Source of the DNA: a phage
Sequence record: PZ583739.1
DNA length: 64,000 nucleotides
Strand: one strand, 5' to 3'
In this document: piece by piece, positions 4,071-57,811 of the stretch
Numbering within the stretch: the first letter of the stretch is position 1
Layout: each line of letters begins with the position of its first letter
The notes under the pieces: model-generated
What the model was told of the DNA's origin: nothing
What the model saw: only the letters and a program-made list of their open reading frames with translations
Database searches by the model: none
Position numbers and translations under genes: made by a program

Positions 4071-4139
4071 TTTAATATCCTTAAGTTATTCATCAGTTGA
4101 TGAGGTAATCATACGGCAATCCATTGCCGTTGTAAACAC

Positions 4140-9131: not shown

Positions 9132-9827
9132 TTAATCTTGGAATTCGTGGCTAGAGCCTTGTTCCATTGCAATCACATAGCTTGCTTGTGTGCCTTCAAA
9201 CTTCGTAGCAAATTTATCATCTTTCGCCCAAAGCATAACACGGTAATCAGCCGGAATCATTTTCATATTCAGTTTGTTAATGATAAATTTAAACGCTGCA
9301 TCGCCTTCGTAATCGCCACACACCAGGGAATACAATGGACGCGCTAATTCTTTATCTTCGAGCTGGTTATAACCATGGATAACAATCTTACCGTCTTTGT
9401 TGGTGATTGCAAAAGTGTCCAGAGACAAACCACCAGCCACACGCAGAAGCTGCTGCAGGTCACTGCCTTTCAGGTCGAAGATAACCTTAGCTACCGGGAA
9501 AGGAATCTTCTTAGCAGGGAACACGATAGTGCTCGGGTCAGCTGCAGGCCAGTGAATCGTTGAACGTTGGTCTTTGATAATGATATTCGATGCATCTTCA
9601 GACAGAGATACTTCAGCTTGGTCAGTTACCAGGCCCAGGATACTTAAGAAGCCGTTCAGGTCATAAATTGCCGCTTCAAAGTCGATTGTATCATTGATTT
9701 CAGATTCACCATATGACGCTCCAGTTACAGAACGAGTTAGGATGGTATTGCCTGGTTTAAGCATAATGCCAGAGTAGATGGAGGTGAAGTTTTTCAAAAC
9801 TGCGATGGTGTCACGACTAAATTTCAT
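9132..9827 (-). CDS. 45: Sliding clamp gp45
   Basis: 231 aa; MKFSRDTIAVLKNFTSIYSGIMLKPG...FWPAADPST...LQQLLRV; collinear with T4 gp45. Confidence 0.95.
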   Translation of the reverse strand: MKFSRDTIAVLKNFTSIYSGIMLKPGNTILTRSVTGASYGESEINDTIDFEAAIYDLNGFLSILGLVTDQAEVSLSEDASNIIIKDQRSTIHWPAADPSTIVFPAKKIPFPVAKVIFDLKGSDLQQLLRVAGGLSLDTFAITNKDGKIVIHGYNQLEDKELARPLYSLVCGDYEGDAAFKFIINKLNMKMIPADYRVMLWAKDDKFATKFEGTQASYVIAMEQGSSHEFQD

Positions 9828-10711
9828 TTCATTTTCCTATTAACATAATAATTTGACCAGGACCGGATTGCACCCTGATAGTTTTCATCATTAAACCCAT
9901 GTTCAATGGCGTGTTTTCTAAACTTAATATACCCTGGTTGGCCTAAAGCATTCCACAATGCTTTAAGTTCATCTTCATACTGTAACCAGGTTCCTCTTGC
10001 TTTAGATTTCCTAAATTTTTCTTTAAATTCAGGGTTGGCATTTCGTTCGGTTGCTCGTTTTGAAGCCTTTATTCTATTATCTGAATTATTCCAATATTCA
10101 GTAATTGATTTTAAATATTTTTCATATACTTCAGATGTATTCATTATAGCTTTGAATTTTAAAGCATACTCAACATCTTTATAACGATTTTTGACTTCAA
10201 CAGACCTTGCTTGTCGAGCTTCGTCAGTCCAATATTCTTTTTGGAAGTCTTTAATTGCTTGAATGTGCTTATCTGAAATTGAACAATCTTTACGAACACC
10301 AACATAATCAGATGTAAGTTCAGATGGATGTAATTTAACAACTTTACCCGTTTTCAAGTTTCGGTATGGAGCATATCCAGGAGCATCATAGCGGCTTTTG
10401 TCGTGTGCATACGTTTTATTAAAGTATTTCTCATTGGTTACAGCTTTAACTGACATTTGAAAAATATTTTCTATTTTCCTTGGGTCCTGTTTTGTTTCCC
10501 CAATGATAGTAACAATATAGTCACCGCTATCAATTAATTCATTATACAGCGTAGTATATTTTGAATTCGGAGAACCTGTATAAATTTTATTATTTTTATC
10601 GAGAATATTTTGGCCATTAAATGTCGTATCAACCTTTGAACCAATATAATAACAAGGGAATTCATTATTTTGTTCCCTTGTTATAAAGGTTATTTTATAA
10701 ATCAAATTCAC
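9824..10711 (-). CDS. GIY-YIG family homing endonuclease (Seg-like), free-standing
   Basis: N-terminus LIYKITFITREQNNEFPCYYIGSK fits the GIY-(10-11 aa)-YIG motif; inserted between 45 and rpbA; basic C-terminal half. Confidence 0.7.
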   Translation of the reverse strand: MNLIYKITFITREQNNEFPCYYIGSKVDTTFNGQNILDKNNKIYTGSPNSKYTTLYNELIDSGDYIVTIIGETKQDPRKIENIFQMSVKAVTNEKYFNKTYAHDKSRYDAPGYAPYRNLKTGKVVKLHPSELTSDYVGVRKDCSISDKHIQAIKDFQKEYWTDEARQARSVEVKNRYKDVEYALKFKAIMNTSEVYEKYLKSITEYWNNSDNRIKASKRATERNANPEFKEKFRKSKARGTWLQYEDELKALWNALGQPGYIKFRKHAIEHGFNDENYQGAIRSWSNYYVNRKMK

Positions 10712-18548: not shown

Positions 18549-18577
18549 ATGATACATCATTCAAAGGAGCTTGTACA
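18549..18577 (-). promoter_or_regulatory. T4-type early promoter
   Basis: Minus strand: GTGTACA, 17 nt, TATCAT, followed by TATCCC; A-tract upstream of -35. Confidence 0.45.
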
Positions 18578-18585
18578 CCCCTTTT

Positions 18586-26281: not shown

Positions 26282-26339
26282 AGTGTTCTCCTCATAAAGT
26301 AGGAATTCATTATACTCCCTCCATCCCTGGAAGTAAACA

Positions 26340-28452: not shown

Positions 28453-28977
28453 TTATGCGAGAACCGTCTTTAAACGCTCTTCAAACTTCTGAAGGAGTAC
28501 CTGGCGCTCTGCTCTTTGTTTGGTATAGGTTTCAATACGCTCTGAAGTGAGATTGTATTGTTCATTAACTGATTCCCGCATGAATTCAGGAATCTCTTTA
28601 CATGCTTTGATTTCATTGAACTTATCAAGCACCGCTTGTTGTTCAGCAATCAGACCATCATAATATTGGATATCTGATTTGATGTTTTGTACATCAGATT
28701 CAGTAGGCATATTTTTCTTTGCTCTTGTCGCCTGATACTCAGCATTAGTCTCTCTTGACCAGAACAAAGAGCGGTTTTTGTTGGTGTTTTTATACACATC
28801 AACAATACCAACTGAATCAACAGTCACAATCCAGTTCCAGGCGTTTTTATAAGTCTGACCACCTGATACTGTAATCTCACCTGCACGAGCAACATCATTA
28901 AAGAACTTACTTTGTGCTTCTGATTTAAAATTACCATTATTGTAATTAATCAGATTAAAGATTGATTTGGCTTCCAT
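28453..28977 (-). CDS. Hypothetical protein, 174 aa
   Basis: ORF directly downstream of early promoter at 29014-29042. Confidence 0.45.
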   Translation of the reverse strand: MEAKSIFNLINYNNGNFKSEAQSKFFNDVARAGEITVSGGQTYKNAWNWIVTVDSVGIVDVYKNTNKNRSLFWSRETNAEYQATRAKKNMPTESDVQNIKSDIQYYDGLIAEQQAVLDKFNEIKACKEIPEFMRESVNEQYNLTSERIETYTKQRAERQVLLQKFEERLKTVLA

Positions 28978-29013
28978 TTTATTCTCCAGTATTTGGTAAC
29001 TCAGTATGGGAAC

Positions 29014-29042
29014 ATTATACGTCTATCCCCATACTATGTACA
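29014..29042 (-). promoter_or_regulatory. T4-type early promoter cassette (PeSL-like)
   Basis: Minus strand: GTGTACA, 17 nt, TATAAT, then conserved leader GTTCCCATACTGAGTTACCAAATA. Confidence 0.5.
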
Positions 29043-29045
29043 CAT

Positions 29046-29354: not shown

Positions 29355-29561
29355 TCACTTGCGACGACGTTTTGGTAATGGTTTAGGGAAGAACATTGCT
29401 TTACCTGCAGGGGTCAAAGTCACACGCAAAGCATTACCAATACCAAGGGATGCTTTAACCAGACCTTTGGCTTTTAACTCACCAAATGCTTGACGTTGTT
29501 CAGGGTCACGAGTGTTAACCATCAGACCTTTTTCACCAGCAGCTTTGATTAATTCTAACAT
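29355..29561 (-). CDS. Hypothetical protein, 68 aa
   Basis: ORF directly downstream of early promoter at 29603-29631. Confidence 0.4.
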   Translation of the reverse strand: MLELIKAAGEKGLMVNTRDPEQRQAFGELKAKGLVKASLGIGNALRVTLTPAGKAMFFPKPLPKRRRK

Positions 29562-29602
29562 TTTATTCTCCGTTTGTTTATTTGGTAACTCAGTATGGAA
29601 TC

Positions 29603-29631
29603 ATTATGTCCTAAGACAAGAGGCTTGTACA
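29603..29631 (-). promoter_or_regulatory. T4-type early promoter cassette (PeSL-like)
   Basis: Minus strand: GTGTACA, 17 nt, CATAAT, then GATTCCATACTGAGTTACCAAATAAAC. Confidence 0.5.
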
Positions 29632-29679
29632 CAATATACTAAATAAAAATACTTAATAAAACCATAAAGGAGAAAGTTT

Positions 29680-30426
29680 ATGATTTTGTCCGGAAGAACT
29701 ATTGATGAACTCAATGAAAAAGTCCAGGCCGCCTTGGCTGATAATTGGTATTTGTTTGGTTCTACTGTGGTGTTGCCAAATACACCTACGGATAGCAAAG
29801 AACGTTTTTTCCAAACTATGTCCAACTCGGAAACTCAGATACCGGGCCCGCCTGGACCAAAAGGAGAACCGGGTGTGTCCGGGCCCAAAGGAGACCCAGG
29901 CGGGGCTGGAAAATCTTCTTATCAGATATGGCTTGACTTGGGGAATACAGGAACTGTTGATGATTTTTTAACTGATACAGCGGGAAAGAGGGAAAAATCC
30001 GAGGTGTTTTGGAGTGGTATAAACGTTCTATTAACTAATGGTGCGACTTCAAACATAATTAGTATTTTAAAGGGGATTCCGCCGACAGCAGGGACTCTAT
30101 CTCCGTTTTTTAGAACCGCTGATGATAAGTTGTGGCCATATAACCAAGACAGAAGCCTAATGTTTAAACTCAACCTTATTGGTAATTTTACAGGAGCCTC
30201 GCAAGCTCGAAGTATAACATTAAATTTCGTTGGAACCAACGGAAACACTTATATACAGAATCGTCCGGAAAATGCTACAGATATTTTGTCTTTTACGACG
30301 TTCTTTAGCATTGATAAAGATGGGGCAATGGCAACCAATGGTACAGCTATAACTGTTACGCCAAATGGCGGCAACTTTACAATAACCTCTGCATTGTTAG
30401 TAGCCGAACAAACAGTGACTTCGTAA
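29680..30426 (+). CDS. Collagen-repeat fibre-like protein, 248 aa, on the opposite strand to its neighbours
   Basis: Strong RBS AAAGGAGAAAG 7 nt before ATG; seven Gly-X-Y triplets (GPPGPKGEPGVSGPKGDPGGAG) followed by KSSYQIWLDLGNTGTVDDFL, a motif I associate with phage tail-fibre proteins; Asn/Thr/Gly-rich C-terminus. Confidence 0.6.
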   Translation: MILSGRTIDELNEKVQAALADNWYLFGSTVVLPNTPTDSKERFFQTMSNSETQIPGPPGPKGEPGVSGPKGDPGGAGKSSYQIWLDLGNTGTVDDFLTDTAGKREKSEVFWSGINVLLTNGATSNIISILKGIPPTAGTLSPFFRTADDKLWPYNQDRSLMFKLNLIGNFTGASQARSITLNFVGTNGNTYIQNRPENATDILSFTTFFSIDKDGAMATNGTAITVTPNGGNFTITSALLVAEQTVTS

Positions 30427-33812: not shown

Positions 33813-33842
33813 ATAGTACACCCTTTTTATGAGGATGTAAAC
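33813..33842 (-). promoter_or_regulatory. T4-type early promoter
   Basis: Minus strand: GTTTACA, ~17-18 nt, TACTAT, then TATCCC. Confidence 0.4.
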
Positions 33843-37729: not shown

Positions 37730-37758
37730 ATCATAACTCATTTCAACCTGCTTGTACA
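37730..37758 (-). promoter_or_regulatory. T4-type early promoter driving regB
   Basis: Minus strand: GTGTACA, 17 nt, TATGAT, then TATCCC. Confidence 0.5.
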
Positions 37759-38338
<580 letters not shown>

Positions 38339-39554: not shown

Positions 39555-39854
39555 TTAGAAAGAACCAGAACCTTTAATTGTGTTCTGGCGACCTTTATTT
39601 TCTAATTCAGAATGGTCAATTTCATATGCTTGTGCTACGCCAAAGGCCTTTTTAACTTTAGCTAAAGAACCTTTAGATGTAACAATATTAAAAGTATTGC
39701 CTTTAGTAAAATCAACCGAATCCACTTGCACGCCCTGTTTACCGAGGCTTGCTACAATAGCATCAACATATTGTTGGTCTAAATTACCTTGGACTCCGAT
39801 TTGAAATGCTTTAGGAGCTTTAGCTTCTGTGATAAATTCTTTATAAGTTAACAT
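39555..39854 (-). CDS. Internal-protein-like small protein with CTS-like N-terminus
   Basis: First ATG gives MLTYKEFITEAKAPK..., resembling the T4 internal-protein capsid targeting sequence MKTYQEFIAEA. Confidence 0.45.
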   Translation of the reverse strand: MLTYKEFITEAKAPKAFQIGVQGNLDQQYVDAIVASLGKQGVQVDSVDFTKGNTFNIVTSKGSLAKVKKAFGVAQAYEIDHSELENKGRQNTIKGSGSF

Positions 39855-39902
39855 TTTATATTCTATTGTTTGGTTGATAAAATCAGTATACAACCTTTTT
39901 AG

Positions 39903-40319
39903 TTAAGCGTACACTGCTTTCCCATAGTATTTGTACCAGGTAGGCTTTTGAGAAATTTTCTCATTCAGTCTGGCTTGACTGATTTCAATTGACCAGATTG
40001 ATGGTTGATAATCATTCTTCCATTCATCAGGAATATCATTTAAATCTTGGGTAGAAATATCTTTTATGTTAAACCCTCGCTTTAAACATTCCGCAATAAG
40101 TTCTTGATGGCGGTTTTTAAGGAACAAAAGTTTATCATAAAAGAAGGTGACATGACCAGTCCCTAAAAGAAAAGATGATGGGATTTTAAAGTCAGAAACC
40201 TTTTTACCATTTTGTACATGTTTGCGAACCGCACCAAACACGCGAGGAAGCTCACGATATTCAGCCATAAGGTGTTGGTCAGCAAGTTCAGATACCAGGG
40301 TTAAGTTAATACGTGTCAT
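39903..40319 (-). CDS. denV: Endonuclease V (pyrimidine-dimer DNA glycosylase) DenV
   Basis: 138 aa; [35 protein letters not shown]...[13 protein letters not shown], near-identical to T4 DenV. Confidence 0.96.
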
Positions 40320-40345: not shown

Positions 40346-40374
40346 ATTATAACCCTATCATTTGGAGATGTACA
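40346..40374 (-). promoter_or_regulatory. T4-type early promoter upstream of denV
   Basis: Minus strand: TGTACA, 17 nt, TATAAT, then GACCCT. Confidence 0.45.
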
Positions 40375-40644
40375 TCATTTCTTAGAGTATTGACCCATAA
40401 GTTTAGCGATATCACCCAATTTCTGATTAAACAAATAATCCACTTCTTTACCAGATTTATCTACAATTTGCCACTGGCCACTTCCTTTGTTACCAAAGGT
40501 CCAATCACCAACTTTAAATGAAGTTCCATTAACTTTTTTAATAGAAGTAAACTCAAAGCCTTCTTTCTTAGCTAAAAATGCCATGCGGCTTTCATCTGAT
40601 TCATTTAATACAGATTCAGCCAAAAATTCTTGATACGTTTTCAT
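40375..40644 (-). CDS. Capsid internal protein (IPII/IPIII-like) with capsid targeting sequence
   Basis: 89 aa; N-terminus MKTYQEFLAES matches T4 CTS; located between denV and e as ipII/ipIII are in T4. Confidence 0.7.
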   Translation of the reverse strand: MKTYQEFLAESVLNESDESRMAFLAKKEGFEFTSIKKVNGTSFKVGDWTFGNKGSGQWQIVDKSGKEVDYLFNQKLGDIAKLMGQYSKK

Positions 40645-40647
40645 ATT

Positions 40648-41142
40648 TTACCTTTTGTATGCGTCAAAAGTTCCAGTACGGAAAGTTTCGATAACTCGTT
40701 TTGCCCTATTCGGAGTCTGGACTTTATACCATCTTGAGTCAGCTAGTTCCTTAGCAGCAGCTTCCCATGATTTAGCCTTCAGAAGTCGCATACCCTTAGG
40801 AAAACCAGCTACCCCAGCAACACCCATCTGGAATACCATATTAATGAGTGCACAGCGACGAACTTCATCCAGTACATCATAAACAGGTTTTAAGACAGGA
40901 TGTCTCAAGATTCCAGCTTTAGCTTTTTCGACCGAACGATTAAACAATGTTTCAGCTTCGTGTTGGGTTATGCGACCATTGCAGACGCGACCCATGAGCT
41001 TGTCGAGCTCAGCACGAGCAACATCTTTTGATGGGTTCTTAGTTATCAGTTGCCCGATACCAATGGTCCAATAGCCTTCAGTATCTTTATACAAATCCAA
41101 CTTACAACCTTCATCTATACGTAACATTTCGAATATATTCAT
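40648..41142 (-). CDS. e: Lysozyme (endolysin, T4 gene e)
   Basis: 164 aa; [32 protein letters not shown]...[12 protein letters not shown]...[16 protein letters not shown], near-identical to T4 lysozyme. Confidence 0.98.
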
Positions 41143-43153: not shown

Positions 43154-43182
43154 ATTGTGTCATAGTCCCACTTGGATGTACA
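43154..43182 (-). promoter_or_regulatory. T4-type early promoter
   Basis: Minus strand: GTGTACA, 17 nt, CACAAT, then GGTCCC. Confidence 0.4.
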
Positions 43183-43185
43183 CAC

Positions 43186-44354: not shown

Positions 44355-44383
44355 ATGATACTACGTTTCTTTAGGCTTGTACA
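44355..44383 (-). promoter_or_regulatory. T4-type early promoter
   Basis: Minus strand: GTGTACA, 17 nt, TATCAT, then TATCTC. Confidence 0.45.
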
Positions 44384-44429
44384 CTAAATTTCTGCACATA
44401 AGTCCTCCTATCACATCCTTGTGATAATT

Positions 44430-44654
44430 TTAGCAGCTACTCGGGTGCCAGATTTTACCGTCAGGTTGAGCAACAAAGGTGCGACCAGCGTCTTCGCCAT
44501 AGCAAGAGCTGTACAACCAGTCTTCGAGACGAACCTCACCATCATATTCGTCAAGCTCAATACCGAAATCTTGAGCGTTAGCCATATCTTTTACTTTCTT
44601 ATACAATGCAGCCAGTTCAAGTGCTGCTTTTTCTAATTCATTAATATCAGACAT
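44430..44654 (-). CDS. Small protein, 74 aa, C-terminal ...KIWHPSSC (divergent member of the WVSSSxxC family)
   Basis: N-terminal helix plus C-terminal W-x-x-S-S-C tail; first of four tandem paralogues. Confidence 0.45.
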   Translation of the reverse strand: MSDINELEKAALELAALYKKVKDMANAQDFGIELDEYDGEVRLEDWLYSSCYGEDAGRTFVAQPDGKIWHPSSC

Positions 44655-44663
44655 TTTTATTCC

Positions 44664-44861
44664 TTAGCATTCGTAAGAGGAGGACACCCAAGAGGTACCA
44701 CTAATTGTAATACAACCATTATAAAGCGTGATATGTCGTTCTAGGTCACGAACACCATCGATATAGATATCAGCTTCTTCGCGTTCTTCTTTGCAAATCT
44801 GGATAACGTTTTCAATAGCTGCCGCAGCAGTACGGATTGCACAATCTAATTCACGAGACAT
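44664..44861 (-). CDS. Small protein, ~65 aa, C-terminal ...SWVSSSYEC
   Basis: Trimmed to ATG at 44861 with RBS AAGGAA; tandem paralogue. Confidence 0.45.
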   Translation of the reverse strand: MSRELDCAIRTAAAAIENVIQICKEEREEADIYIDGVRDLERHITLYNGCITISGTSWVSSSYEC

Positions 44862-44869
44862 AACATTCC

Positions 44870-45151
44870 TTAACATTCAGAAGAGGAGGACACCCAACCG
44901 CCTTTTTCCAGGTCAGTTGTATAGTCATGAGTATTAACAATAGCCCATTCAGGATGGCCATGTTCTTCCCAATGAGCAAGGTCGGCTTTCAGGGCGCCAG
45001 GAGAATAATAGTCACCGCCCATACCGCGAGCAGGGTATATATTAAAATGAGTCTCATATTTGTTTGCAATTTCCTCGGCACGACGAATAGCTTTATGGAT
45101 GTCATTTACTGCGTTAGCCAGTTCTTTATTTTTACGGTAATCATTCATCAT
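44870..45151 (-). CDS. Small protein, 93 aa, C-terminal ...GGWVSSSSEC
   Basis: Tandem paralogue; helical N-terminus. Confidence 0.45.
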   Translation of the reverse strand: MMNDYRKNKELANAVNDIHKAIRRAEEIANKYETHFNIYPARGMGGDYYSPGALKADLAHWEEHGHPEWAIVNTHDYTTDLEKGGWVSSSSEC

Positions 45152-45160
45152 AGAGTTTCC

Positions 45161-45451
45161 TTAGCACATTGCCGAAGAGGAGACCCAAGCACCAACTGTA
45201 ACGACACCGTTTTCAACTTCGCCGCCGTTGTTTTCAATTTCATCTTTAAACCACTTGGAGCATTCATAACCGACAGGATAATATGTACGGCCTGAACCAT
45301 AATCACCGGTACCGAATTGGATACCGTATTCATCTGCGATTTCTTCGCAGTGTTTTTCAATTTCAGAGGTCTTATTTAGAAGAGAATAGATAGCTTTTTC
45401 TGCAGATTTTTCATCATAATACTTGGGGATAGCAATTTCAATTTTATTCAT
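45161..45451 (-). CDS. Small protein, 96 aa, C-terminal ...GAWVSSSAMC
   Basis: Tandem paralogue. Confidence 0.45.
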   Translation of the reverse strand: MNKIEIAIPKYYDEKSAEKAIYSLLNKTSEIEKHCEEIADEYGIQFGTGDYGSGRTYYPVGYECSKWFKDEIENNGGEVENGVVTVGAWVSSSAMC

Positions 45452-46676: not shown

Positions 46677-46719
46677 AATATTCTCCTCTCCCAATTAGGG
46701 GGCAAAGCCCCCTTTTATC

Positions 46720-47313: not shown

Positions 47314-47385
47314 GGTATTTCCTTCAGATGGTTAAAGTTTTATTATCCAGGGAACATACTATCATGTTCCCATTAAAGCACTAAT

Positions 47386-47691
47386 TTAGATTTTGTTTTC
47401 CTGCACACCATAATAAAGTTCATCAGACACGATATCCAGGATGCGGCGAACATATTCATCATGGTATTGGCAGTCAAAATCAAATGCAACAGTAGTTTCC
47501 GCTTCACGAGTGAATTTAACTTGCACATTCAGGTGATTAACAACGTTAGTTAATTTATCAGTAAAGAACTCTTTTGCTACCGCCTGTTGGACTTGCACTT
47601 TGAACTTGGTGTTACGAATCATATTTTCAGCAGATGCGAAATTACCAGTTTTATCAAAGTCAACAAGCGCCAGGTTGATGATGAATTTCAT
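47386..47691 (-). CDS. Hypothetical protein, 101 aa
   Basis: RBS GGAG; directly downstream of promoter 47733-47761. Confidence 0.45.
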   Translation of the reverse strand: MKFIINLALVDFDKTGNFASAENMIRNTKFKVQVQQAVAKEFFTDKLTNVVNHLNVQVKFTREAETTVAFDFDCQYHDEYVRRILDIVSDELYYGVQENKI

Positions 47692-47732
47692 TTTATTCTC
47701 CAGTGTTTTATTTGGTAACTCAGTATGGAATC

Positions 47733-47761
47733 ATTATGCCTTAAAGCAGGGGGCTTGTATA
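47733..47761 (-). promoter_or_regulatory. T4-type early promoter cassette (PeSL-like)
   Basis: Minus strand: GTATACA, 17 nt, CATAAT, then GATTCCATACTGAGTTACCAAATAAA; -35 sits inside the GGGGGcuuguauaCCCCC hairpin. Confidence 0.5.
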
Positions 47762-47773
47762 CCCCCTTTTTAA

Positions 47774-48205
47774 TTAAATTTCAAATTCTTTTCGGAAGTT
47801 GGAAGCATAAGACTGAACTGATGCTTTGTTGAATCCAAACTCACGCACAATCATATCAATAACAGCTCTGCGAGCAGCACCATTAGACATATTAACAGTT
47901 TTGAACATATCATAGCATAAATCTTTGTTGCTCATACCGGAGCGTTTAGGTGCTTTTGGTTCAGCTTTAGGAGTAGGTTTAACTTCTGGTTTAACCTGTC
48001 CATCATTCAGACCTTTAAAAATTTTACCTGCCAGAGTTGCCAGTTTAGCAGCTTCGCCACGAGTGATACCAAATACTGCCGGGTTAAATGAAATACCTTC
48101 AGCTGTCAGACGTTTGAAGAACATACGTGCTGCGGATTGTGCTTCAGCTTCAGAAGAGTTGTTTAATGCCAGTTTAACATACTTAACCAGTTTTGAAGTT
48201 TTCAT
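47774..48205 (-). CDS. Hypothetical protein, 143 aa, paralogue of 48289-48714
   Basis: Trimmed to ATG at 48205 (MKTSKLVKY...); C-terminal ...AARRAVIDMIV...VQSYASNFRKEFEI. Confidence 0.45.
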   Translation of the reverse strand: MKTSKLVKYVKLALNNSSEAEAQSAARMFFKRLTAEGISFNPAVFGITRGEAAKLATLAGKIFKGLNDGQVKPEVKPTPKAEPKAPKRSGMSNKDLCYDMFKTVNMSNGAARRAVIDMIVREFGFNKASVQSYASNFRKEFEI

Positions 48206-48247
48206 TTTATTATCCCGTTTGTTTATTTGGTAACTCAGTATGGGATA

Positions 48248-48276
48248 ATTATACACTATCCCACCTGGAAGTAAAA
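48248..48276 (-). promoter_or_regulatory. T4-type early promoter cassette (PeSL-like)
   Basis: Minus strand: GTTTTAC, 17 nt, TATAAT, then TATCCCATACTGAGTTACCAAATAAA. Confidence 0.5.
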
Positions 48277-48288
48277 CACTTTTCTCAA

Positions 48289-48714
48289 TTATTTTTGAGC
48301 TTTGCGGAAGTTGGAAGCATATGACTGAACAACAGTCTTTTTGATATCATGGGTGGTAACCAGAACATCAATCAGAGCACGACGAGCTGCATTATCATTC
48401 ATATCAATTTCTGCAAATGCCTGGAAGCAAATGTCACGAGCGTTACCAGATTTGGACTGGATTTTTTCTTCTTTAACTTCTTCAATTGGGAATTCAATCA
48501 TTTCAGCTTGGATTAATTCAATAATAGATTCTTTTGACTGTTTGGTGTTTACCTTCAGTTCAGAATTAAGGGACTTGGCGATGGCAACAATCTGGGTTGA
48601 AGTCAGATGGATAAGTGCATCTTCACGAATGCAGATTTCACATACTTCGTCGGCAACCATTTTGTTAGTGATGCGGGTAACAGAGAATGCAGAGGTCAGG
48701 GTCAGAAAGTTCAT
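48289..48714 (-). CDS. Hypothetical protein, 141 aa, paralogue of 47774-48205
   Basis: Trimmed to ATG at 48714 (MNFLTLTSAF...); C-terminal ...AARRALIDVLV...VQSYASNFRKAQK. Confidence 0.45.
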   Translation of the reverse strand: MNFLTLTSAFSVTRITNKMVADEVCEICIREDALIHLTSTQIVAIAKSLNSELKVNTKQSKESIIELIQAEMIEFPIEEVKEEKIQSKSGNARDICFQAFAEIDMNDNAARRALIDVLVTTHDIKKTVVQSYASNFRKAQK

Positions 48715-48765
48715 TTTATTTCTCCAAAGTTTTGTTTGATTCAGTGTGTAACTCAATATGGAATC

Positions 48766-48794
48766 ATTATGCACCCGGTCAATTCGGATGTACA
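48766..48794 (-). promoter_or_regulatory. T4-type early promoter cassette (PeSL-like)
   Basis: Minus strand: GTGTACA, 17 nt, CATAAT, then GATTCCATATTGAGTTACACACTG. Confidence 0.5.
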
Positions 48795-48830
48795 CTACTT
48801 TTTGAAGAAAATTTCAAATTTATTCAGGGT

Positions 48831-48854
48831 ATAAAAAAGCCCGCATTGCGGGCT
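48831..48854 (-). terminator. Rho-independent terminator
   Basis: Minus-strand hairpin AGCCCGCaaugGCGGGCU followed by U6. Confidence 0.6.
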
Positions 48855-49432: not shown

Positions 49433-49461
49433 TAAAAAAGCCCCAACCTTTCGGAAGGGGC
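49433..49461 (-). terminator. Rho-independent terminator
   Basis: Minus-strand hairpin AGCCCCuuccgaaagguuGGGGCU followed by U6. Confidence 0.55.
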
Positions 49462-49499
49462 TATACCTTGTCGGGGTTCCACCTGCAAGGCAAGTGTTC

Positions 49500-49883: not shown

Positions 49884-49914
49884 TTTGTTTTTCCATTATT
49901 AGGGTTGTTGTTAA

Positions 49915-49922
49915 TATTTATA
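49915..49922 (-). promoter_or_regulatory. T4 late promoter TATAAATA
   Basis: Exact TATAAATA on minus strand 32 nt upstream of ATG at 49883. Confidence 0.55.
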
Positions 49923-50120
49923 TTCCATAGTACCGGATGCACCATCCGCTCGGATTTCTCATACTACCGGGCGCACCGCCCGCTCTGGAAAAACTCCGTA
50001 AAAGGGTGCGCCGTTTCTGCTGTGATATAAGGGGACATCAACAAATCGTAAAGATTTATTAATGTCAGTCCTTAAACAGGGAACATCAGTCCGACGACTT
50101 ACCGGTAGCGACCCGGTTTC

Positions 50121-50375: not shown

Positions 50376-50452
50376 TGGTCGGGGTGGTGGGATTCTAACC
50401 CACAACCTACGGTTTAGAAGACCGTTGCTCTATACAATTGAGCTACACCCCG
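50376..50452 (-). tRNA. tRNA-Arg (anticodon UCU), CCA encoded
   Basis: Hand-folded cloverleaf: acceptor CGGGGTG/CACCCCG, anticodon stem ACGGT/ACCGT, loop CTTCTAA, T-arm GTGGG-TTAGAAT-CCCAC, discriminator A + CCA. Confidence 0.8.
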
Positions 50453-50454
50453 GG

Positions 50455-50528
50455 TGGCCCCATCCGGACTTGAACCGGAAACCTGCCAGTTATGAGCCGG
50501 ATGCTCTAACCAATTGAGCTACAGGGCC
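50455..50528 (-). tRNA. tRNA with CAU anticodon (Met, or Ile if lysidine-modified)
   Basis: Hand-folded: acceptor GGCCCTG/TGGGGCC, D-arm GCTC-AATTGGTTA-GAGC, anticodon loop CTCATAA, T-arm TCCGG-TTCAAGT-CCGGA. Confidence 0.8.
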
Positions 50529-51971: not shown

Positions 51972-52032
51972 TTTATTCTCCTCATATTTTGATAGGGTTA
52001 TAGTATCTCAACTAGAACCCGTTGTAAACAAT

Positions 52033-52257
52033 TTATTCCACACCAGCAGCTTTCAAAAGTTTTTTAAGATTGGCAGTACCTTGAGCGGAAAATGTGACTT
52101 TGCCACCTTTTTCACCGATGCTACCGGTCAATTTAGCAAGTTTATCACTTGGAATTTTTTTAAAATCAGCCAGTGTACCATCAAAGGTTTTTGTAACAAC
52201 TGGCAGTTCATCTTCGTGTCTTTTAGCTTCGGTAATAAATTCTTGATAAGTTTTCAT
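52033..52257 (-). CDS. CTS-tagged capsid internal protein candidate, 74 aa
   Basis: N-terminus MKTYQEFITEA; own early promoter. Confidence 0.65.
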   Translation of the reverse strand: MKTYQEFITEAKRHEDELPVVTKTFDGTLADFKKIPSDKLAKLTGSIGEKGGKVTFSAQGTANLKKLLKAAGVE

Positions 52258-52287
52258 TTTGATTCCTATTGTTTATTTGATGAGATA

Positions 52288-52316
52288 ATTATACAATATC
52301 CCATTCAAAAGTACAC
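52288..52316 (-). promoter_or_regulatory. T4-type early promoter
   Basis: Minus strand: GTGTAC, 17 nt, TATAAT, then TATCTC. Confidence 0.45.
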
Positions 52317-52571
52317 TTATTTTTTAGGGATACGGTAGTAACGCATCTCAACATCTTTCTGCTTGTACCACTTTTTGATAAGGTCTTCAGAACCTTTAAT
52401 AGTAACGATGTCATAGCGACCATCATGCGATACTTCAGCACTTAACTGCATGAAGTTGTCTAGTGAACGACGCAATTCCTCATTAGAAAAACTACCACGC
52501 GGGGAACCAACATAAGCAAACTCAACTTTTGCATCTGCGGCTTCGTTAATAAATTCTTGATAAGTTTTCAT
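52317..52571 (-). CDS. CTS-tagged capsid internal protein candidate, 84 aa
   Basis: N-terminus MKTYQEFINEA; own early promoter. Confidence 0.65.
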   Translation of the reverse strand: MKTYQEFINEAADAKVEFAYVGSPRGSFSNEELRRSLDNFMQLSAEVSHDGRYDIVTIKGSEDLIKKWYKQKDVEMRYYRIPKK

Positions 52572-52596
52572 GTTGTCTCCAGTAGTTGATGAGATA

Positions 52597-52626
52597 ATTA
52601 TACTGCAGTTATCCCATCGCGTATAC
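52597..52626 (-). promoter_or_regulatory. T4-type early promoter
   Basis: Minus strand: GTATAC, 18 nt, TATAAT, then TATCTC. Confidence 0.4.
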
Positions 52627-52627
52627 T

Positions 52628-52870
52628 TTATTTTAAGTCTTCCAGACGTTTTTTCATCTTGGTGCCGTTCTTAGCAATCTCGCCTGCATCAGAACAAAGA
52701 GCAAGGAGAGCTTTAACTTTACCCTGGTCGCCTTTAAAAGATGATGCATCTACTGAATCAGCAAGTTCTTTGATACGTGCAAACAGGCGCTCTGCTTCAG
52801 CAAGGGCTTGACCAAGTTTAACTTCCATACCATGGGAAGATTCTGTTATAAATGTTTGATAAGTTTTCAT
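52628..52870 (-). CDS. CTS-tagged capsid internal protein candidate, 80 aa
   Basis: N-terminus MKTYQTFITES. Confidence 0.65.
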   Translation of the reverse strand: MKTYQTFITESSHGMEVKLGQALAEAERLFARIKELADSVDASSFKGDQGKVKALLALCSDAGEIAKNGTKMKKRLEDLK

Positions 52871-52878
52871 TTGAAATC

Positions 52879-53151
52879 CTATTTTAGATAAATTGCATAT
52901 TTTTTATAACCAGCCGTCTCATGGCGAAGACCCTTGTCATTGGCAAAACGCTCAATGTTATTAATTTGGTTCTGGTCAAGTTCTGAAATGTCAAACGCGA
53001 AAAAGTTGCGTTTGTTGCCAATTGTTATATGGTCAGTTAAGTCAATGCTATACAGGTGATTGATATTGTCAATCATAGCTTTGACCGCTTTACTAATTTT
53101 TACTTCTTCATTCAGTTGTGACTCGTTGAAAAATTCATTGAAAGTTTTCAT
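52879..53151 (-). CDS. CTS-tagged capsid internal protein candidate, 90 aa
   Basis: N-terminus MKTFNEFFNES; late promoter TATAAATA 10 nt upstream of the ATG. Confidence 0.6.
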   Translation of the reverse strand: MKTFNEFFNESQLNEEVKISKAVKAMIDNINHLYSIDLTDHITIGNKRNFFAFDISELDQNQINNIERFANDKGLRHETAGYKKYAIYLK

Positions 53152-53523: not shown

Positions 53524-53552
53524 ATAATACTGCACCTACACTCATTTGTACA
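53524..53552 (-). promoter_or_regulatory. T4-type early promoter
   Basis: Minus strand: GTGTACA, 17 nt, TATTAT, then GTTCCT. Confidence 0.45.
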
Positions 53553-54243
<691 letters not shown>

Positions 54244-55602: not shown

Positions 55603-56277
55603 TTATTTTATTAATGTGTTAAGTCTTAGCTTAGTCATAAACGGATAACGTTCCAACATTGGCTTTACCCAGTATCGAGGATGCAATTCCTTTTTATATG
55701 CTAGGACCAACTCTCGAGCTTGCTCGATGGTATCAACTCCGAAGTTTTTGCACATTTCTTGCCTATCTTTTTCCCACCGGCGCTTTCTCAATTCATCCTG
55801 AATCTCTTTATTTTTAAAATGTCCATTATTGCGAGAATGTTTTGTACCCTTGGTTGGACTGTAATGTCTTCCTTTGACAAACCCATCCGGAACATCTTCC
55901 CATGGAAATAGTTTTATCGATTTTACACCATTATTAAAGTAAACTTTACCGGTTTGGCTTTTAGAAATATTGTCAGCGTGTCTGCGTCTTAACCAGCCAA
56001 ATAATTTATTATTGCGTTTCAAATACTTGCTTGACTGGCTCATAGATGTGGCAGCAAAACTTAAACCTGGATTTGTAGGATATATTTTAACCAATAGTTG
56101 ATGGGCTACATAATGTTCTTCGGGAGTCAAATCGACTAAGTTATCCGGAGCATTTGAACCACCCATACATTTCGGAATGATGTGATGAGATTCTTTATAT
56201 GAAATCAGGACCCTGTTACGGGCCCTTTCAATTAACGATGAATATATAAACTGATAATTCAAAGTGAATTTCTCCAT
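55603..56277 (-). CDS. HNH homing endonuclease, free-standing, inserted between genes 3 and 2
   Basis: 224 aa; [31 protein letters not shown] is a canonical HNH motif; basic C-terminal DNA-binding-like region. Confidence 0.75.
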
Positions 56278-57086
56278 ACTTTCTGTGAAGAAAATCTTTT
56301 GCCTTTTGAAAAAAACTGCTGAAGGGGGAGTAATACCACATTTGCCCAGTCGCTGGGCTTGATTTCAGTAATAGTACCTTTTATATTGCCAGGTATATAT
56401 GCTTTAATCATCTGGTCAGCCCCTTTAAATCCCTTCACTTTTGACCAATCAATCTTCAGATGAGTCTTGTTCGTAATCGTAGGAGTATTAGCATATTGCT
56501 TAAGAAGTTCCTCAAGGAACTCTTGACGTGCCTTCGGTGGAATATAGTGCAAGTTCAAACCATACATCAAATTGTGCTTACCTAGCCCAAGATAAATGAT
56601 TAACGGATATTTGTCCCAGTACGGAAGAGTATCCTTATGCTTTGCATCATAGATATAAGCATAAATCTTACCCGGTTGAGGTTTAGCCGTTACGTGGCCC
56701 CGAACTGATTTCTTAATTGTCTCTGCGAACCATCTGGCAGATTTGGTGTTGCTTGCGGCGCCTTCGTTAGCAATCTTATCTCTTATGCTCTTTCTAAAGC
56801 TATTCACCATTATCAGCTGACGTTCAGCCTTCGTAAGTTTACCGGCAGGTTTCTTTTTGAGCTTGGATACTTTATAAGCAGTCTGAATTCTCGAATGATA
56901 TCTTGACATGCTTTTGGTAAAGGTCGAATAGTTGATTCCTTTCTCTTCAGCAAACTTCTTCGAGGTCATTCCCTTTTCTTTTGCTGTATAAAATTCAACC
57001 CCTATCTCAACCCATTGTTGTTCGGATTTACTGGGTTTCGGACCTGGTTTATCTGCAGATTCATTGATAAATGTAAAAATACTCAT
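56259..57086 (-). CDS. 2: DNA end-protector protein gp2
   Basis: 275 aa from ATG at 57086 (ATGA overlap with upstream stop); size and position match T4 gp2. Confidence 0.75.
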
Positions 57087-57811
57087 CCTTTCCATCCTTC
57101 TATAAAATTAATCAAATCATTTTTTAAATAGTATGGTAAGGTTTCTGTATAGCCATCGACCATAATATCTTTATTCAAATAACCTCTGTCTTTTATATAT
57201 AATACAGATATTGCGGATTCTAACATTTTGGCTTGTGCACCCAGTTCAAATTCTCGATAATATAATTTGGAACTAATGCATTTGGAAAAATGATTTTGCT
57301 GCCACAATCTAAAATCATGATTGGAAGTTATACCATACTTTAAAGCAGTTCCGCCTGGATATTCTATTTTATTAACATAAACAATAGCAGGTTTCTTTGC
57401 GTTAAATCCTTTGTGACAACAGTTTGGACATCCTTTGTTTTTTGTTGTAAAGTTGTTTAGATTTGTAATCCAACTGGTTGAACACGTAGAACACTTTATA
57501 TAGGCTTTTGATTTTGTAAAAGTTGAATATGTGGTATCCCATTTATCAAAACTATACAATGGATTCACGGAATTTATTCTTGTGATTGCATCTAATTCAG
57601 ATATTAATTTGCTTTCACCATAAGAACGTTTTAAATTACAATTAGAACACCAACTTTTTGTTTTTAACTTATGCTTTAAAACAGTTGCTTTGTATTTGCA
57701 TGTTTCTTCACATATAAAGCACTTTACAAATATCAAAGTTTTTGATTTATTAAAATCGCCTTGTCCCACTATCTCGCCATTTGTGATGTTAAAATCTGAA
57801 CAATCGTACAT
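57083..57811 (-). CDS. Cys-rich putative endonuclease, inserted between genes 2 and 4
   Basis: 242 aa; N-terminal CxxC pairs ([13 protein letters not shown]) and second cluster CSTCS...CPNCCH; C-terminal [21 protein letters not shown] is GIY-YIG-like; genes 2 and 4 are adjacent in T4. Confidence 0.4.

Follow-up and report, generated by a model that had tools for sequence, protein, structure and literature searches.

Promoter early stem-loops (PeSLs) of the phages RB49 and phi1 combine an AT-rich flank, a sigma-70 promoter, a stem-loop and a Shine-Dalgarno sequence (SD) with ATG. The stem-loop is often built of a G-run and a C-run and often encloses or overlaps the -10, the elements precede ORFans of hyperplastic regions, and indels that distinguish close relatives terminate within them (PMC2839356). 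The published crossovers in RB49 and phi1 fall in the stretch from the -10 to the ATG or SD (PMC2839356). Comeau 2014 reported that the PeSL type recurs across T4-like phages with a lineage-specific consensus, which is TTTACW-N17-TAYWAT in T4 and PST; Gaprivervirus was outside that PeSL analysis (PMC4122927). The consensus of the T4 early promoters extends beyond the -35 and the -10, and in middle promoters the -35 is replaced by the MotA box (a/t)(a/t)TGCTT(t/c)a, centred at -30 and 11-13 bp 5' of the -10 (PMC2988021).

The DNA analysed here is a stretch of 64,000 nucleotides, referred to as the window. Its identity with Gaprivervirus TH41 and UPEC01 is 97.8%, and it is collinear with SP18 from nrdC to gp5; by sequence, the source phage is a Gaprivervirus, a VR7/SP18-type T4-like coliphage. 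Eighteen early-promoter cassettes of sigma-70 type were found in the window, all 18 on the minus strand, co-directional with the genes and each shortly 5' of a gene start. These repeats are quite probably predicted immediate-early promoters set in composite PeSL-type cassettes, which provide homology patches for the exchange of single-gene modules. The PeSL reading is supported, as the traits of the RB49 and phi1 elements that can be tested in silico were all present. The likeness proposed in the preliminary description was thus borne out for the promoter, the A/T-rich flank, the stem-loop, the SD with ATG, the ORFan location and the breakpoints in relatives. Judged on these traits, the window cassettes extend the already-described type to another T4-like genus; as the class is known, cassettes acting as recombination seams have already been described in other T4-type phages.

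The differences from the described systems lie in the details of the signals. The -35 is the consensus TTGACA in RB49 and phi1 and G(T/G)TACA in the window, and the leader CATACTGAGTTA, which marks a subclass of the window cassettes, was absent from the RB49 elements compared. In RB49 and phi1, experiments demonstrated promoter and terminator activity and also mini-circles (PMC2839356); for the window cassettes such activities would be predictions. The stem-loops of PST stand just 5' of the promoter, whereas those of the window mostly span the -10 or the -35, and the degraded 'half' PeSLs found beside indels in Comeau 2014 resemble a remnant at 47337-47372 of the window (PMC4122927). With the T4 early promoters the cassettes have in common strong UP, -35 and -10 elements, extra conserved positions and the predicted use by unmodified host polymerase right after infection (PMC2988021), and also the genome position in the nrdC-tk-vs-regB-ip-e-tRNA region. 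The predominant -35 is GTTTAC in T4 and TGTACA in the window; unlike in T4 early promoters, the extended -10 TG is mostly absent and the conserved initially transcribed sequence is lineage-specific. As single-gene, self-expressed units that are gained or lost, the cassettes are also comparable to morons and integron cassettes; the flanking signals of morons are not thought to mediate mobility, and integrons need an integrase and attC sites, whereas no recombinase is implicated for the window cassettes.

The order of elements in a cassette is proposed to be an A/T-rich flank, a -35 G(T/G)TACA, a spacer of 16-17 bp, a YATAAT-like -10 and a C-rich discriminator of 6 nt, followed by a start near the A of ATACTG/ATCAAC, an unstructured leader of 20-45 nt, the SD and the ATG that opens a small accessory gene. 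Host sigma-70 RNA polymerase would read such cassettes as immediate-early promoters; the promoter activity, timing and start sites of the 18 cassettes are predictions from the consensus and from T4. An SD and ATG were present within 20-45 nt downstream at 18/18 sites, with GGAG in 11 of them, and these GGAG sequences may be cleaved by RegB. The 20 nt ending 7 nt 5' of the -35 heptamer contain 70% A+T against 60.5% for the window, a modest excess, and the 7 nt adjoining the -35 are mostly A-rich (AAAAGTA and AATAAAG, for example). A generic sigma-70 scan found the five cassettes carrying the leader CATACTGAGTTA at 9-10 of 12 consensus positions, and the number of matches that it returned in the window was not above shuffles (12 vs 9.0 +/- 3.2); it is therefore the extended, phage-specific consensus that carries the evidence. 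One form of it, TGTACA-N17-YATNAT, matched 8 times where 0.11 matches were expected, each time on the minus strand.

Other classes of element were considered and rejected. The sites carry G(T/G)TACA at the -35 and no MotA box at -30, which argues against middle (MotA-dependent) promoters; the sole TGCTTTA, in the cassette at 47762, is only 3 nt from the -10. A structured RNA in the leader was discarded, since no Rfam family was matched and the leaders fold less well than shuffles; a search of the window with the Rfam 15 covariance models at the gathering threshold returned only two tRNAs (50379-50452 and 50455-50528). Host mimicry was likewise dismissed, the 50-nt cassette being without a match in 5,426 E. 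coli genomes.

The leader CATACTGAGTTA marks five of the 18 cassettes, and all five were recovered on the minus strand at the positions given in the preliminary description. The term near-identical applied to them there was overstated, identity to the reference copy being 62-85% over 74 nt and 74-94% over 31 nt (repeat families D3 and D4). The motif GTGTACA-N17-YATAAT, described as common to all, was exact in three copies (29014-29043, 29603-29632 and 48766-48795; 0.00 expected from 100 shuffles), and the other two deviate in the -35, which is GTATACA at 47762 and GTTTTAC/TTTACT with a 16-nt spacer at 48276. The discriminator GATTCC/TATCCC held except in the cassette at 29014, where GTTCCC stands instead. 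The shared leader is full in four of the five copies: ATACTGAGTTACCAAATAAA is exact at 29577-29596, 47707-47726 and 48222-48241 (0 expected), occurs with 2 mismatches at 28988-29007 and has diverged to ATATTGAGTTACACACTGAA in the fifth copy (48795). Downstream of each lies a small ORF of 68-174 aa of unknown function, as had been noted, and Pfam and PHROGs returned unknown-function families only for the genes behind the cassettes.

The first of these cassettes (28975..29043) consists of the -35 GTGTACA (29043-29037), the -10 TATAAT (29019-29014), GTTCCC, the leader ATACTGAGTTACCAAATACT, GGAG and the ATG at 28977 of an nrdC.8-like gene of 174 aa; its -10 is enclosed by a 12-bp hairpin TAGTATGGGGAT/GTTCCCATACTG, G.U pairs included, with a fold z of -4.5. 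The second (29559..29632) has GTGTACA, 17 nt, CATAAT, GATTCC, the exact leader, GGAG and the ATG at 29561 of a basic ORF of 68 aa. Its homology with VR20, P896 and SP18 stops at 29607-29631, within the promoter, and its spacer core matches that of a cassette about 28 kb away, adjoining gene 41, in RZ and P896. The third (47689..47762) has GTATACA, CATAAT, GATTCC, the exact leader, GGAG and the ATG at 47691. Its -35 is in the loop of a GGGGG..CCCCC hairpin, which on the plus strand reads as an intrinsic terminator (47748-47767), and RZ and DK-13 have a deletion junction at 47690. The ORF that follows (47386-47691, 101 aa) is RB49p198-like, and a PeSL also precedes the homologue RB49p198 in RB49, with the same layout as in the window, TTGACA..GGGGATAT-AGCATAAT-ATCCCC. 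In that RB49 element a hairpin GGGGATAT..ATATCCCC surrounds CATAAT, and the start region ATCCCCATC is close to the TATCCCATC of the window.

The fourth cassette (48203..48276) has TTTACT, 16 nt, TATAAT, TATCCC, the exact leader and the ATG at 48205 of a 143-aa ORF, and the hairpin TGGGATA/TATCCCA encloses its -10. The fifth (48712..48795) has GTGTACA, 17 nt, CATAAT, GATTCC, the diverged leader ATATTGAGTTACACAC, GGAG and the ATG at 48714 of a 141-aa ORF, the C-terminal 58 aa of which are common with the next gene. A bidirectional intrinsic terminator, AGCCCGCAATGCGGGCT with a T-run, lies 43 nt 5' of the -35 of the fifth cassette (48838..48854). It shares GGGCTTTTTTATA with the intrinsic terminator AGCCCCTTCCGAAAGGTTGGGGCTTTTTT on the minus strand upstream of a 555-nt gene (49434..49462). 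SP18, TH54, 212 and P896 have that gene deleted, the two terminators being the partners of the deletion and the 3' half GGGCTTTTTTATA its junction. On the minus strand 5' of e.6, the degenerate cassette remnant (47337..47372) retains a hairpin GGGAACAT..ATGTTCCC, then TAGTAT-GTTCCC and then CTGGATAATAAAAC; it is the junction of a 306-nt gene deletion in RZ and DK-13 and of a 399-nt gene insertion in TH54, 212, VR20 and P896.

The remaining 13 promoters, all on the minus strand, use the other start region, ATCAAC. The nine reported earlier were all real, the positions given being the last base of the -10 hexamer; the TATCCC-type discriminator ascribed to them was found at three, the others having TATCTC (three sites), GACCCT, GGTCCC and GTTCCT. 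Four further promoters of the same type were added, with the -35 at 4137, 26338, 39914 and 52029. The promoter at 4108..4137 (GTTTACA-17-TATGAT) is 5' of an imm-like gene and has a spacer hairpin CGGCAA/TTGCCG. GTGTACA-17-TATCAT with TATCCCATCAAC at 18549..18578 has a hairpin overlapping the -35. GTTTACT-17-TATAAT was found at 26309..26338, GTTTACA-17-TACTAT with TATCCCATCAAC at 33813..33842, and GTGTACA-17-TATGAT with TATCCCATCAAAC at 37730..37759, with regB directly downstream. The promoter at 39885..39914 (GTGTACG-17-TATACT) is 5' of an internal-protein gene, and an indel junction (39813-39859) lies in its leader and the capsid-targeting codons. At 40346..40375 (ATGTACA-17-TATAAT; breakpoints 40330, 40351 and 40374) the -10 is in the loop of a 9-bp hairpin TGATAGGGT/ACCCTATCA with a z of -5.0, and at 43154..43183 (GTGTACA-17-CACAAT; breakpoints 43139, 43175 and 43192) the weak -10 is enclosed by the 7-bp hairpin GTGGGAC/GTCCCAC. 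Breakpoints also accompany GTGTACA-17-TATCAT at 44355..44384 (44339 and 44383) and GTTTACA-17-TACTAT at 52000..52029 (51984 and 51996). Two promoters stand 5' of internal-protein genes, GTGTACT-16-TATAAT at 52288..52316 with the hairpin ATGGGATA/TATCTCAT and GTATACG-17-TATAAT at 52597..52626 with the hairpin GATGGGATA/TATCTCATC and a breakpoint at 52634. In GTGTACA-17-TATTAT at 53524..53553, the 7-bp hairpin GTGTAGG/CCTACAC encloses the -10. Over the 18 sites, the downstream genes are of unknown function or code for internal proteins.

Folding of the region from -42 to +14 at the 18 sites gave a mean z of -2.04 (t-test p=7e-5), with z below -2 at 10/18, whereas the leaders from +1 to +45 were less structured than shuffles (mean z +0.64, p=5e-4). 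Within a cassette, the spacer pairs better with the discriminator and leader than it does with those from another cassette (permutation p=0.015). Watson-Crick stems of at least 7 bp were present in 5/18 and differ in sequence (GTGGGAC/GTCCCAC, GTGTAGG/CCTACAC and TGATAGGGT/ACCCTATCA, for example); stems of 7-9 bp surround the -10 at 29043, 40375, 43183, 48276 and 53553. About 8 of the 18 promoters have weak stems only and are without a convincing hairpin. In general, the -10 or the -35 would be spanned by a hairpin, or else a terminator would stand just upstream. A T-run is absent from most of the hairpins, which makes a terminator role doubtful for those. Structures of this kind require a read-through or antisense transcript, or DNA in single-stranded form, and so they probably serve to insulate the individual one-gene units.

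The comparison with related phages for cassette-bounded gene swaps, which the preliminary description had suggested, drew on 10 genomes, all of them over 38-58 kb but no more than 4-5 over 1-38 kb, and revealed breakpoints inside cassettes. Of the 46 indel or replacement events, 14 have an end inside a cassette. The breakpoint coordinates fall in cassette spans in 22/100 cases, the spans being 3.4% of the sequence; the binomial p=2e-12 is a base-level value that is inflated, as the coordinates are not independent. By indel density the variable regions extend over about 22.3-30.6 kb and 38.8-53 kb under this uneven sampling, so that the two hyperplastic regions proposed earlier were retained with boundaries other than 25-30 and 41-53 kb. 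Counted by junction over the whole window, promoter junctions were broken in 10/18 cases and other junctions in 40/113, which is not significant (OR 2.3, p=0.086). The earlier wording of cassettes as the recombination sites was therefore weakened to one favoured class of several, and the cassettes are seen as one of several short-homology substrates with a modest per-junction enrichment. Further substrates are SD/ATG sequences, the 3' halves of terminators and, in internal-protein genes, the capsid-targeting sequence.

This weak window-wide enrichment is in accordance with a rival explanation, that the cassettes are ordinary strong early promoters, alike through selection for an optimal RNA-polymerase recognition sequence and linked to indels incidentally. 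Whole-gene indels must then end in intergenic DNA, and short SD/ATG homology suffices for T4-type recombination. The explanation agrees with the 32 of 46 events in which neither end is in a cassette, several of them relying on just 9-25 nt of SD/ATG or N-terminal homology, and with clean indels away from cassettes, some flanked by short SD/ATG repeats (GCGAGAAGAAAATG and TGCTAAGGAAATAAAATGACT, for example) and others by capsid-targeting codons or the 3' half GGGCTTTTTTATA of a terminator. We nevertheless consider it rather unlikely. In the 38-54 kb region, which holds 11/18 sites and 25/46 events, breakpoints occur at 9/11 promoter junctions vs 10/28 other junctions (OR 8.1, p=0.012). An inserted 297-nt gene in six relatives (P8, CJ20, TH54, DK-13, VR20 and P896) is bordered on both sides by 50-nt imperfect repeats that run from the -10 to the ATG (window copy 48203-48252); no longer junction homology turned up in the non-coding DNA of cassettes. 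Promoter cores also move from one locus to another, bounded by the leader and the -35; for the genes starting MKTSKLVKY and MLELIKAAGE the cores differ between phages and the leader is the junction. In UPEC01, the closest annotated relative, 3/4 differences over 43.6-56.5 kb are at cassettes.

Exchange at PeSL-type cassettes would proceed through the blocks that recur at many loci, namely the -35, the -10 with discriminator and leader, and the SD-ATG, which can thus act as short homology patches for the phage recombination system. Crossovers or short conversion tracts in these blocks would insert, delete or swap single-gene modules, and the same exchanges would re-pair promoter cores with genes. 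The internal-protein genes (39555-39854, 40375-40644, 52033-52257, 52317-52571 and 52628-52870) form a special case of the same shuffling, in which the junction homology includes coding sequence. They share N-terminal capsid-targeting codons (MKTYQEF) and upstream sequences, and were gained, lost or replaced among relatives exactly at these repeats; the exchange at repeats is like the polymorphism of the T-even IP locus, as far as that is related in a later account (Repoila et al. 1994, cited in PMC4122927).

The invariance of the leader could have a different origin. Its core of 13-17 nt, (C)CATACTGAGTTAMC, might be mainly a specific cis-regulatory site and not merely recombination homology, a reading that we hold to be doubtful. 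Possible roles are an operator at +1 to +12 bound by a phage repressor (ACTGAGT is a near-palindrome), a -10-like CATACT followed by GAG that directs sigma-70-dependent promoter-proximal pausing, or a 5'-end RNA site recognised by a phage protein; with any of these, about ten immediate-early accessory genes would be regulated together. The core stands at a fixed distance from the -10 and a variable distance from the SD/ATG, precedes unrelated genes, and is present in 8-13 leader copies per Gaprivervirus genome. In Morganella phage MP1 (genus Gualtarvirus) the core recurs without change in each of the five annotated copies compared. For the two orthologous proteins encoded downstream, identity is 53% and 45%; it reaches 94% and 76% at leader positions 1-17, compared with 63-68% in the coding DNA and 58-71% over the -35 and spacer. 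Such identity of the core across genera, with downstream proteins about 50% identical, suggests a sequence-specific function, and a regulatory core would amount to an early-gene control layer not described in T4-type phages. However, the leader has no covariation, predicted RNA structure, Rfam family or host counterpart, a candidate binding factor was not found, and the 13 promoters with ATCAAC are otherwise seemingly equivalent; concerted evolution by recombination, together with promoter-escape selection on the initially transcribed sequence, could explain the conservation. An exact-match scan of IMG/VR for the leader gave 25 stretches, the multi-copy ones on four contigs of roughly 163-172 kb; the remaining matches were scattered, single and chance-like, and a wide distribution was rejected.

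A local tandem duplication of gene and promoter at 47.7-48.8 kb is highly improbable and was ruled out as the full explanation, since unrelated genes at 28977, 29561 and 47691, the 29 kb copies among them, have the leader in front as well, and so does the 297-nt gene of the relatives; the genes behind 48276 and 48795 are indeed paralogous (C-terminal 58 aa, 47% identity; cross-matches of both to phrog_9997 and phrog_18416; repeat family D10 at 47788-47818 and 48300-48330 in both 3' ends), but their promoter cores differ and the pair, each gene with its own cassette, is already in MP1, so that the duplication is old.

As PeSL-type elements, the cassettes of promoter, hairpin and leader would be both the expression signals of single accessory genes and the seams of their exchange, and direct comparative evidence carries this picture into another T4-like genus. 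For annotators they mark early transcription units, and they may predict differences in gene content between otherwise near-identical therapeutic phages. Three insertions were specific to the window; Pfam was uninformative for these, and PHROGs identified two of the three as endonuclease genes.

A sequence search with the segment 46500-50000 of the window gave matches to 164 phage records, mainly Escherichia and Shigella T4-like phages, with 97.8% identity to TH41 and UPEC01, both from Escherichia. UPEC01, SP18, VR20, RZ and other close relatives are classified as Tevenvirinae, genus Gaprivervirus. The gene order was collinear with SP18 (nrdC - tk - vs - regB - internal proteins - denV - e - e.6 - tRNAs - 57B/57A - 1 - 3 - 2 - 4 - 53 - 5), the left part corresponds to the relatives' stretch from gene 41 to nrdC, and the minus strand carries the genes as far as about 58.3 kb. 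Two tRNA genes were detected with Rfam at 50379-50452 and 50455-50528 (minus strand); at the matching place two are annotated in VR20 and P896 (Arg, Met) and three in SP18 (Arg, Asn, Met), and the indel boundaries 50431 and 50932 fall inside this cluster.

The early-promoter cassettes were re-read in the window and are named here by the start of the -35 element. The five leader-type cassettes (29043, 29632, 47762, 48276 and 48795, all minus strand) were located where the preliminary description had placed them. The pattern GTGTACA-N17-YATAAT ascribed to them was present in three of the five (0.00 expected in shuffles) and not in 47762, which has the -35 variant GTATACA, or in 48276, which reads GTTTTAC/TTTACT with a 16-nt spacer. 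The shared 20-nt leader was exact in three copies and carried two mismatches in one more (0 expected), the copy at 48795 having diverged. The repeat finder grouped the cassettes independently into the families D3 (4 copies, 74 nt, 62-85% identity) and D4 (5 copies, 31 nt, 74-94% identity), and the term near-identical was therefore too strong. The nine further predicted promoters, listed earlier by the final base of each -10 hexamer, are real sites, and four sites with the -35 at 4137, 26338, 39914 and 52029 were added. All the resulting 18 sites lie on the minus strand with an SD and ATG 20-45 nt downstream. TGTACA-N17-YATNAT gave eight matches, on the minus strand only, against 0.11 expected. 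Two start-region classes were distinguished, the CCCATCAAC-type (13 sites) and the (C)CATACTGAGTTA-type (5 sites). MotA middle promoters were rejected, the TGCTT box at -30 being absent from the sites.

In the 20 nt sampled before the -35, A+T made up 70%, compared to 60.5% window-wide. The region -42 to +14 of the 18 sites folded more stably than shuffles (mean z -2.04, p=7e-5), while the leaders (+1 to +45) had less structure than shuffled sequence (mean z +0.64, p=5e-4). In many sites the 3' part of the spacer pairs with the discriminator and start region, which places the -10 in the loop. Such -10-enclosing stems were found in cassettes 40375 (TGATAGGGT/ACCCTATCA), 43183 (GTGGGAC/GTCCCAC), 53553 (GTGTAGG/CCTACAC), 48276 (TGGGATA/TATCCCA) and 29043 (TAGTATGGGGAT/GTTCCCATACTG). 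The arms vary in sequence from site to site and retain complementarity; pairing within a site exceeded cross-site pairing (permutation p=0.015), and Watson-Crick stems of at least 7 bp occurred in 5 of the 18 sites. Some spacers in the relatives and in Morganella phage MP1 hold a long complement of the leader, such as the 13-bp inverted repeat GGTAACTCAGTAT..ATACTGAGTTACC. Cassette 47762 has its -35 in the loop of a G5/C5 stem, which reads on the plus strand as an intrinsic terminator (47748-47767). Cassette 48795 is preceded by a bidirectional terminator (48838-48854), at a distance of 43 nt from its -35. Plus-strand intrinsic terminators at 46697-46713 and 47748-47767 stand amid minus-strand-only genes and would halt antisense transcription. 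The stretch 46.5-50.2 kb has an excess of terminator-like hairpins, 11 compared to 3.1 +/- 1.9 in shuffled sequence. An unusually long non-coding gap of 237 nt (49884-50120), which separates the tRNA-adjacent 79-aa gene from a 384-nt gene, contains GC-rich hairpins (GGGCGGTGCGCCC; CCGAGCGGATGGTGCATCCGG) and the -10-like TAGTAT and TACTAT; it had no match in Rfam, and the indel of the 384-nt gene (49498|50005) has one of its ends there.

Promoter early stem-loops (PeSLs) are defined by an AT-rich flank, a sigma-70 early promoter, a stem-loop and an SD with ATG, the stem-loop taking any of five positions, most commonly between -35 and -10 or overlapping the -10 (PMC2839356). Such elements occur in hyperplastic regions in front of ORFans, and at the edges of indels, and the crossovers observed fell between the -10 and either the SD or the ATG; PeSL-like sequences were noted in JS98 as well (PMC2839356). 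Lineage-specific versions exist in T4/PST and KVP40/nt-1, and are expected in probably all T4-likes (PMC4122927). Every feature by which a PeSL is recognised in silico was found in the window cassettes, with promoter activity predicted from sequence, and the PeSL-type interpretation of the preliminary description was correct in substance. The 101-aa ORFan at 47386-47691 (minus strand) showed 46% identity to RB49p198 and its phi1 homologue (Krischvirus). The RB49 element upstream of RB49p198 reads TTGACA, CCGGATCGGGGATATAG, CATAAT, ATCCCCATCGAAAC, GGAG, ATG, with the -10 surrounded by a GGGGATAT/ATATCCCC hairpin, a design identical to that of cassettes 48276 and 40375. RB49p198 belongs to the PeSL-rich stretch ORF190-211 that Arbiol et al. 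studied, and the cassette type in front of this gene differs by genus. The cassettes matched no Rfam family. They add one more example to a class of element already known, and carry a leader specific to the lineage.

The window was aligned with 10 Gaprivervirus genomes (coverage of 4-5 genomes for 1-38 kb and 10 for 38-58 kb). The 46 distinct indel or replacement events found include 25 within 38.8-53 kb and 9 within 22.3-30.6 kb; cassette-bounded gene differences, as anticipated earlier, were among them, 14 of the 46 events having an end in a cassette. The strongest point of the comparison is the same gene behind different promoter cores: for the genes MKTSKLVKY... and MLELIKAAGE... the core differs by phage and the invariant leader is the seam, as a survey of the leader copies at all loci showed. 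Between e.6 and the tRNAs, the genomes differ in which combination of single genes (399, 306, 297, 555 and 384 nt) they carry. P8, CJ20, TH54, DK-13, VR20 and P896 have the 297-nt gene between two imperfect direct repeats of 50 nt that correspond to window 48203-48252, the segment spanning the -10 and leader up to the ATG. The 306-nt RB49p198-like gene is absent from RZ and DK-13; the junction is in CTGGA(G/T)AATAAAA, with the SD of cassette 47762 on one side and, on the other, a degenerate cassette remnant that precedes e.6. The 555-nt gene is absent from SP18, TH54, 212 and P896, with the junction GGGCTTTTTTATA common to both flanking terminators. Internal-protein genes were gained or lost at the common leader plus capsid-targeting codons (homology 36-47 nt). 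The repeat family D2 comprises their starts (MKTYQEF..., capsid-targeting) with the upstream SD at 39823-39878, 40613-40668, 52226-52281, 52540-52595 and 52839-52894; whole genes differ among relatives exactly at these repeats, the classical IP-locus polymorphism.

The spacer core AAGCCTCTTGTCTTAGGA of cassette 29632 (29603-29632) matched a cassette that RZ and P896 carry beside gene 41, some 28 kb distant, in front of a different gene (MFNQTDMNRY...; near 2573 in sequence L012 and near 1490 in L013). The orthologous local cassettes in RZ, TH54, VR20 and P896 have AACCAGATGGTCATGA(T/G)G in the spacer instead, and the flank upstream of the -35 of 29632 is the local version. The distant match beside a local flank indicates a putative conversion tract of short length, with the -35 at one limit and the -10 plus leader at the other, and looks like ectopic exchange between cassettes.

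Cassette spans make up 3.4% of the sequence and contained 22 of 100 breakpoint coordinates (binomial p=2e-12, inflated because the coordinates are non-independent). Breakpoints occurred at 10 of 18 promoter-bearing gene junctions against 40 of 113 others (OR 2.3, p=0.086), and in 38-54 kb at 9 of 11 against 10 of 28 (OR 8.1, p=0.012). Several clean indels elsewhere were flanked by mere 9-25 nt SD/ATG or N-terminal repeats. The cassettes are therefore one favoured class of crossover site among several, in accordance with Comeau et al., who state the same for PeSLs (PMC4122927). At 44640-44897 and 45156-45188, indels of about 210-265 nt (SP18, P896, TH54, VR20, 212 and CJ20) are flanked by the repeat family D6 and by the motif TGCTAAGGAAATAAAATGACT, which lies at the edges of very small genes; no promoter takes part, which shows that SD/ATG homology by itself suffices for module gain or loss.

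By analogy with T4, the cassettes would be transcribed immediate-early by the unmodified host polymerase (PMC2988021). The regB gene lies directly behind promoter 37759. RegB would then, as in T4, inactivate the GGAG-containing SDs. Judging from the sequence, hairpins and terminators probably shield each single-gene unit against read-through and antisense transcription, and phage recombination, as known, would act on patches below 50 bp (PMC2839356).

The invariance of the leader across genera is the sole unexplained feature. Its core CATACTGAGTTA occurs in 8-13 copies per Gaprivervirus genome, in Morganella phages MP1 and Rgz1 and two Providencia phages at lower overall identity, and singly in a few other coliphages; the 50-nt cassette had no match in 5,426 E. 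coli genomes. Five annotated promoters of MP1, a member of the genus Gualtarvirus, read GTGTACA / 17 nt / (C/T)ATAAT / GATCCC-like / ATACTGAGTTA(A/C)CAAA(C/T)AAAC...GGAG...ATG, and two of them precede orthologues of window genes 47774-48205 (53% protein identity) and 48289-48714 (45%). Here leader positions 1-17 showed 94% and 76% identity, compared to 63-68% for coding DNA and 58-71% for -35 plus spacer. The core lies at a fixed distance from the -10 and a variable one from the SD, so the constraint seems tied to initiation or the 5' end and not to the ribosome-binding site. The invariance may reflect selection on the initially transcribed sequence, concerted evolution or a specific factor; a factor site is an unlikely explanation, and could be an operator (the near-palindrome ACTGAGT), a pause signal (-10-like CATACT+GAG) or an RNA site.

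Other variable segments were also observed. A segment of 859 nt (9833-10693) beside the gene 45 (sliding clamp) region is absent from VR20, RZ, P896 and TH54, and its 210-aa ORF (9824-10456) matched no Pfam or PHROG family. The segment 29632-30645 of about 1 kb, starting exactly at the -35 of cassette 29632, is absent in VR20 and P896 and replaced in SP18. Within this early region it holds, on the opposite strand, a 248-aa ORF (29680-30426, plus strand) that combines a collagen-like run of G-x-y with a tail-needle-knob domain of the Sf6 type (PF16532, E=8.5e-33; phrog_1030); RZ has a plus-strand gene at this place. Two endonuclease-type ORFs on the minus strand adjoin gene 2, one on the gene 3 side and one on the gene 4 side. 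The ORF at 55603-56277 (phrog_655 homing endonuclease, E=2e-56) lies within a 658-nt insertion missing from 10 of 10 relatives compared, and that at 57083-57811 (phrog_681 endonuclease, E=2.5e-29) is missing from five relatives and replaced in others.
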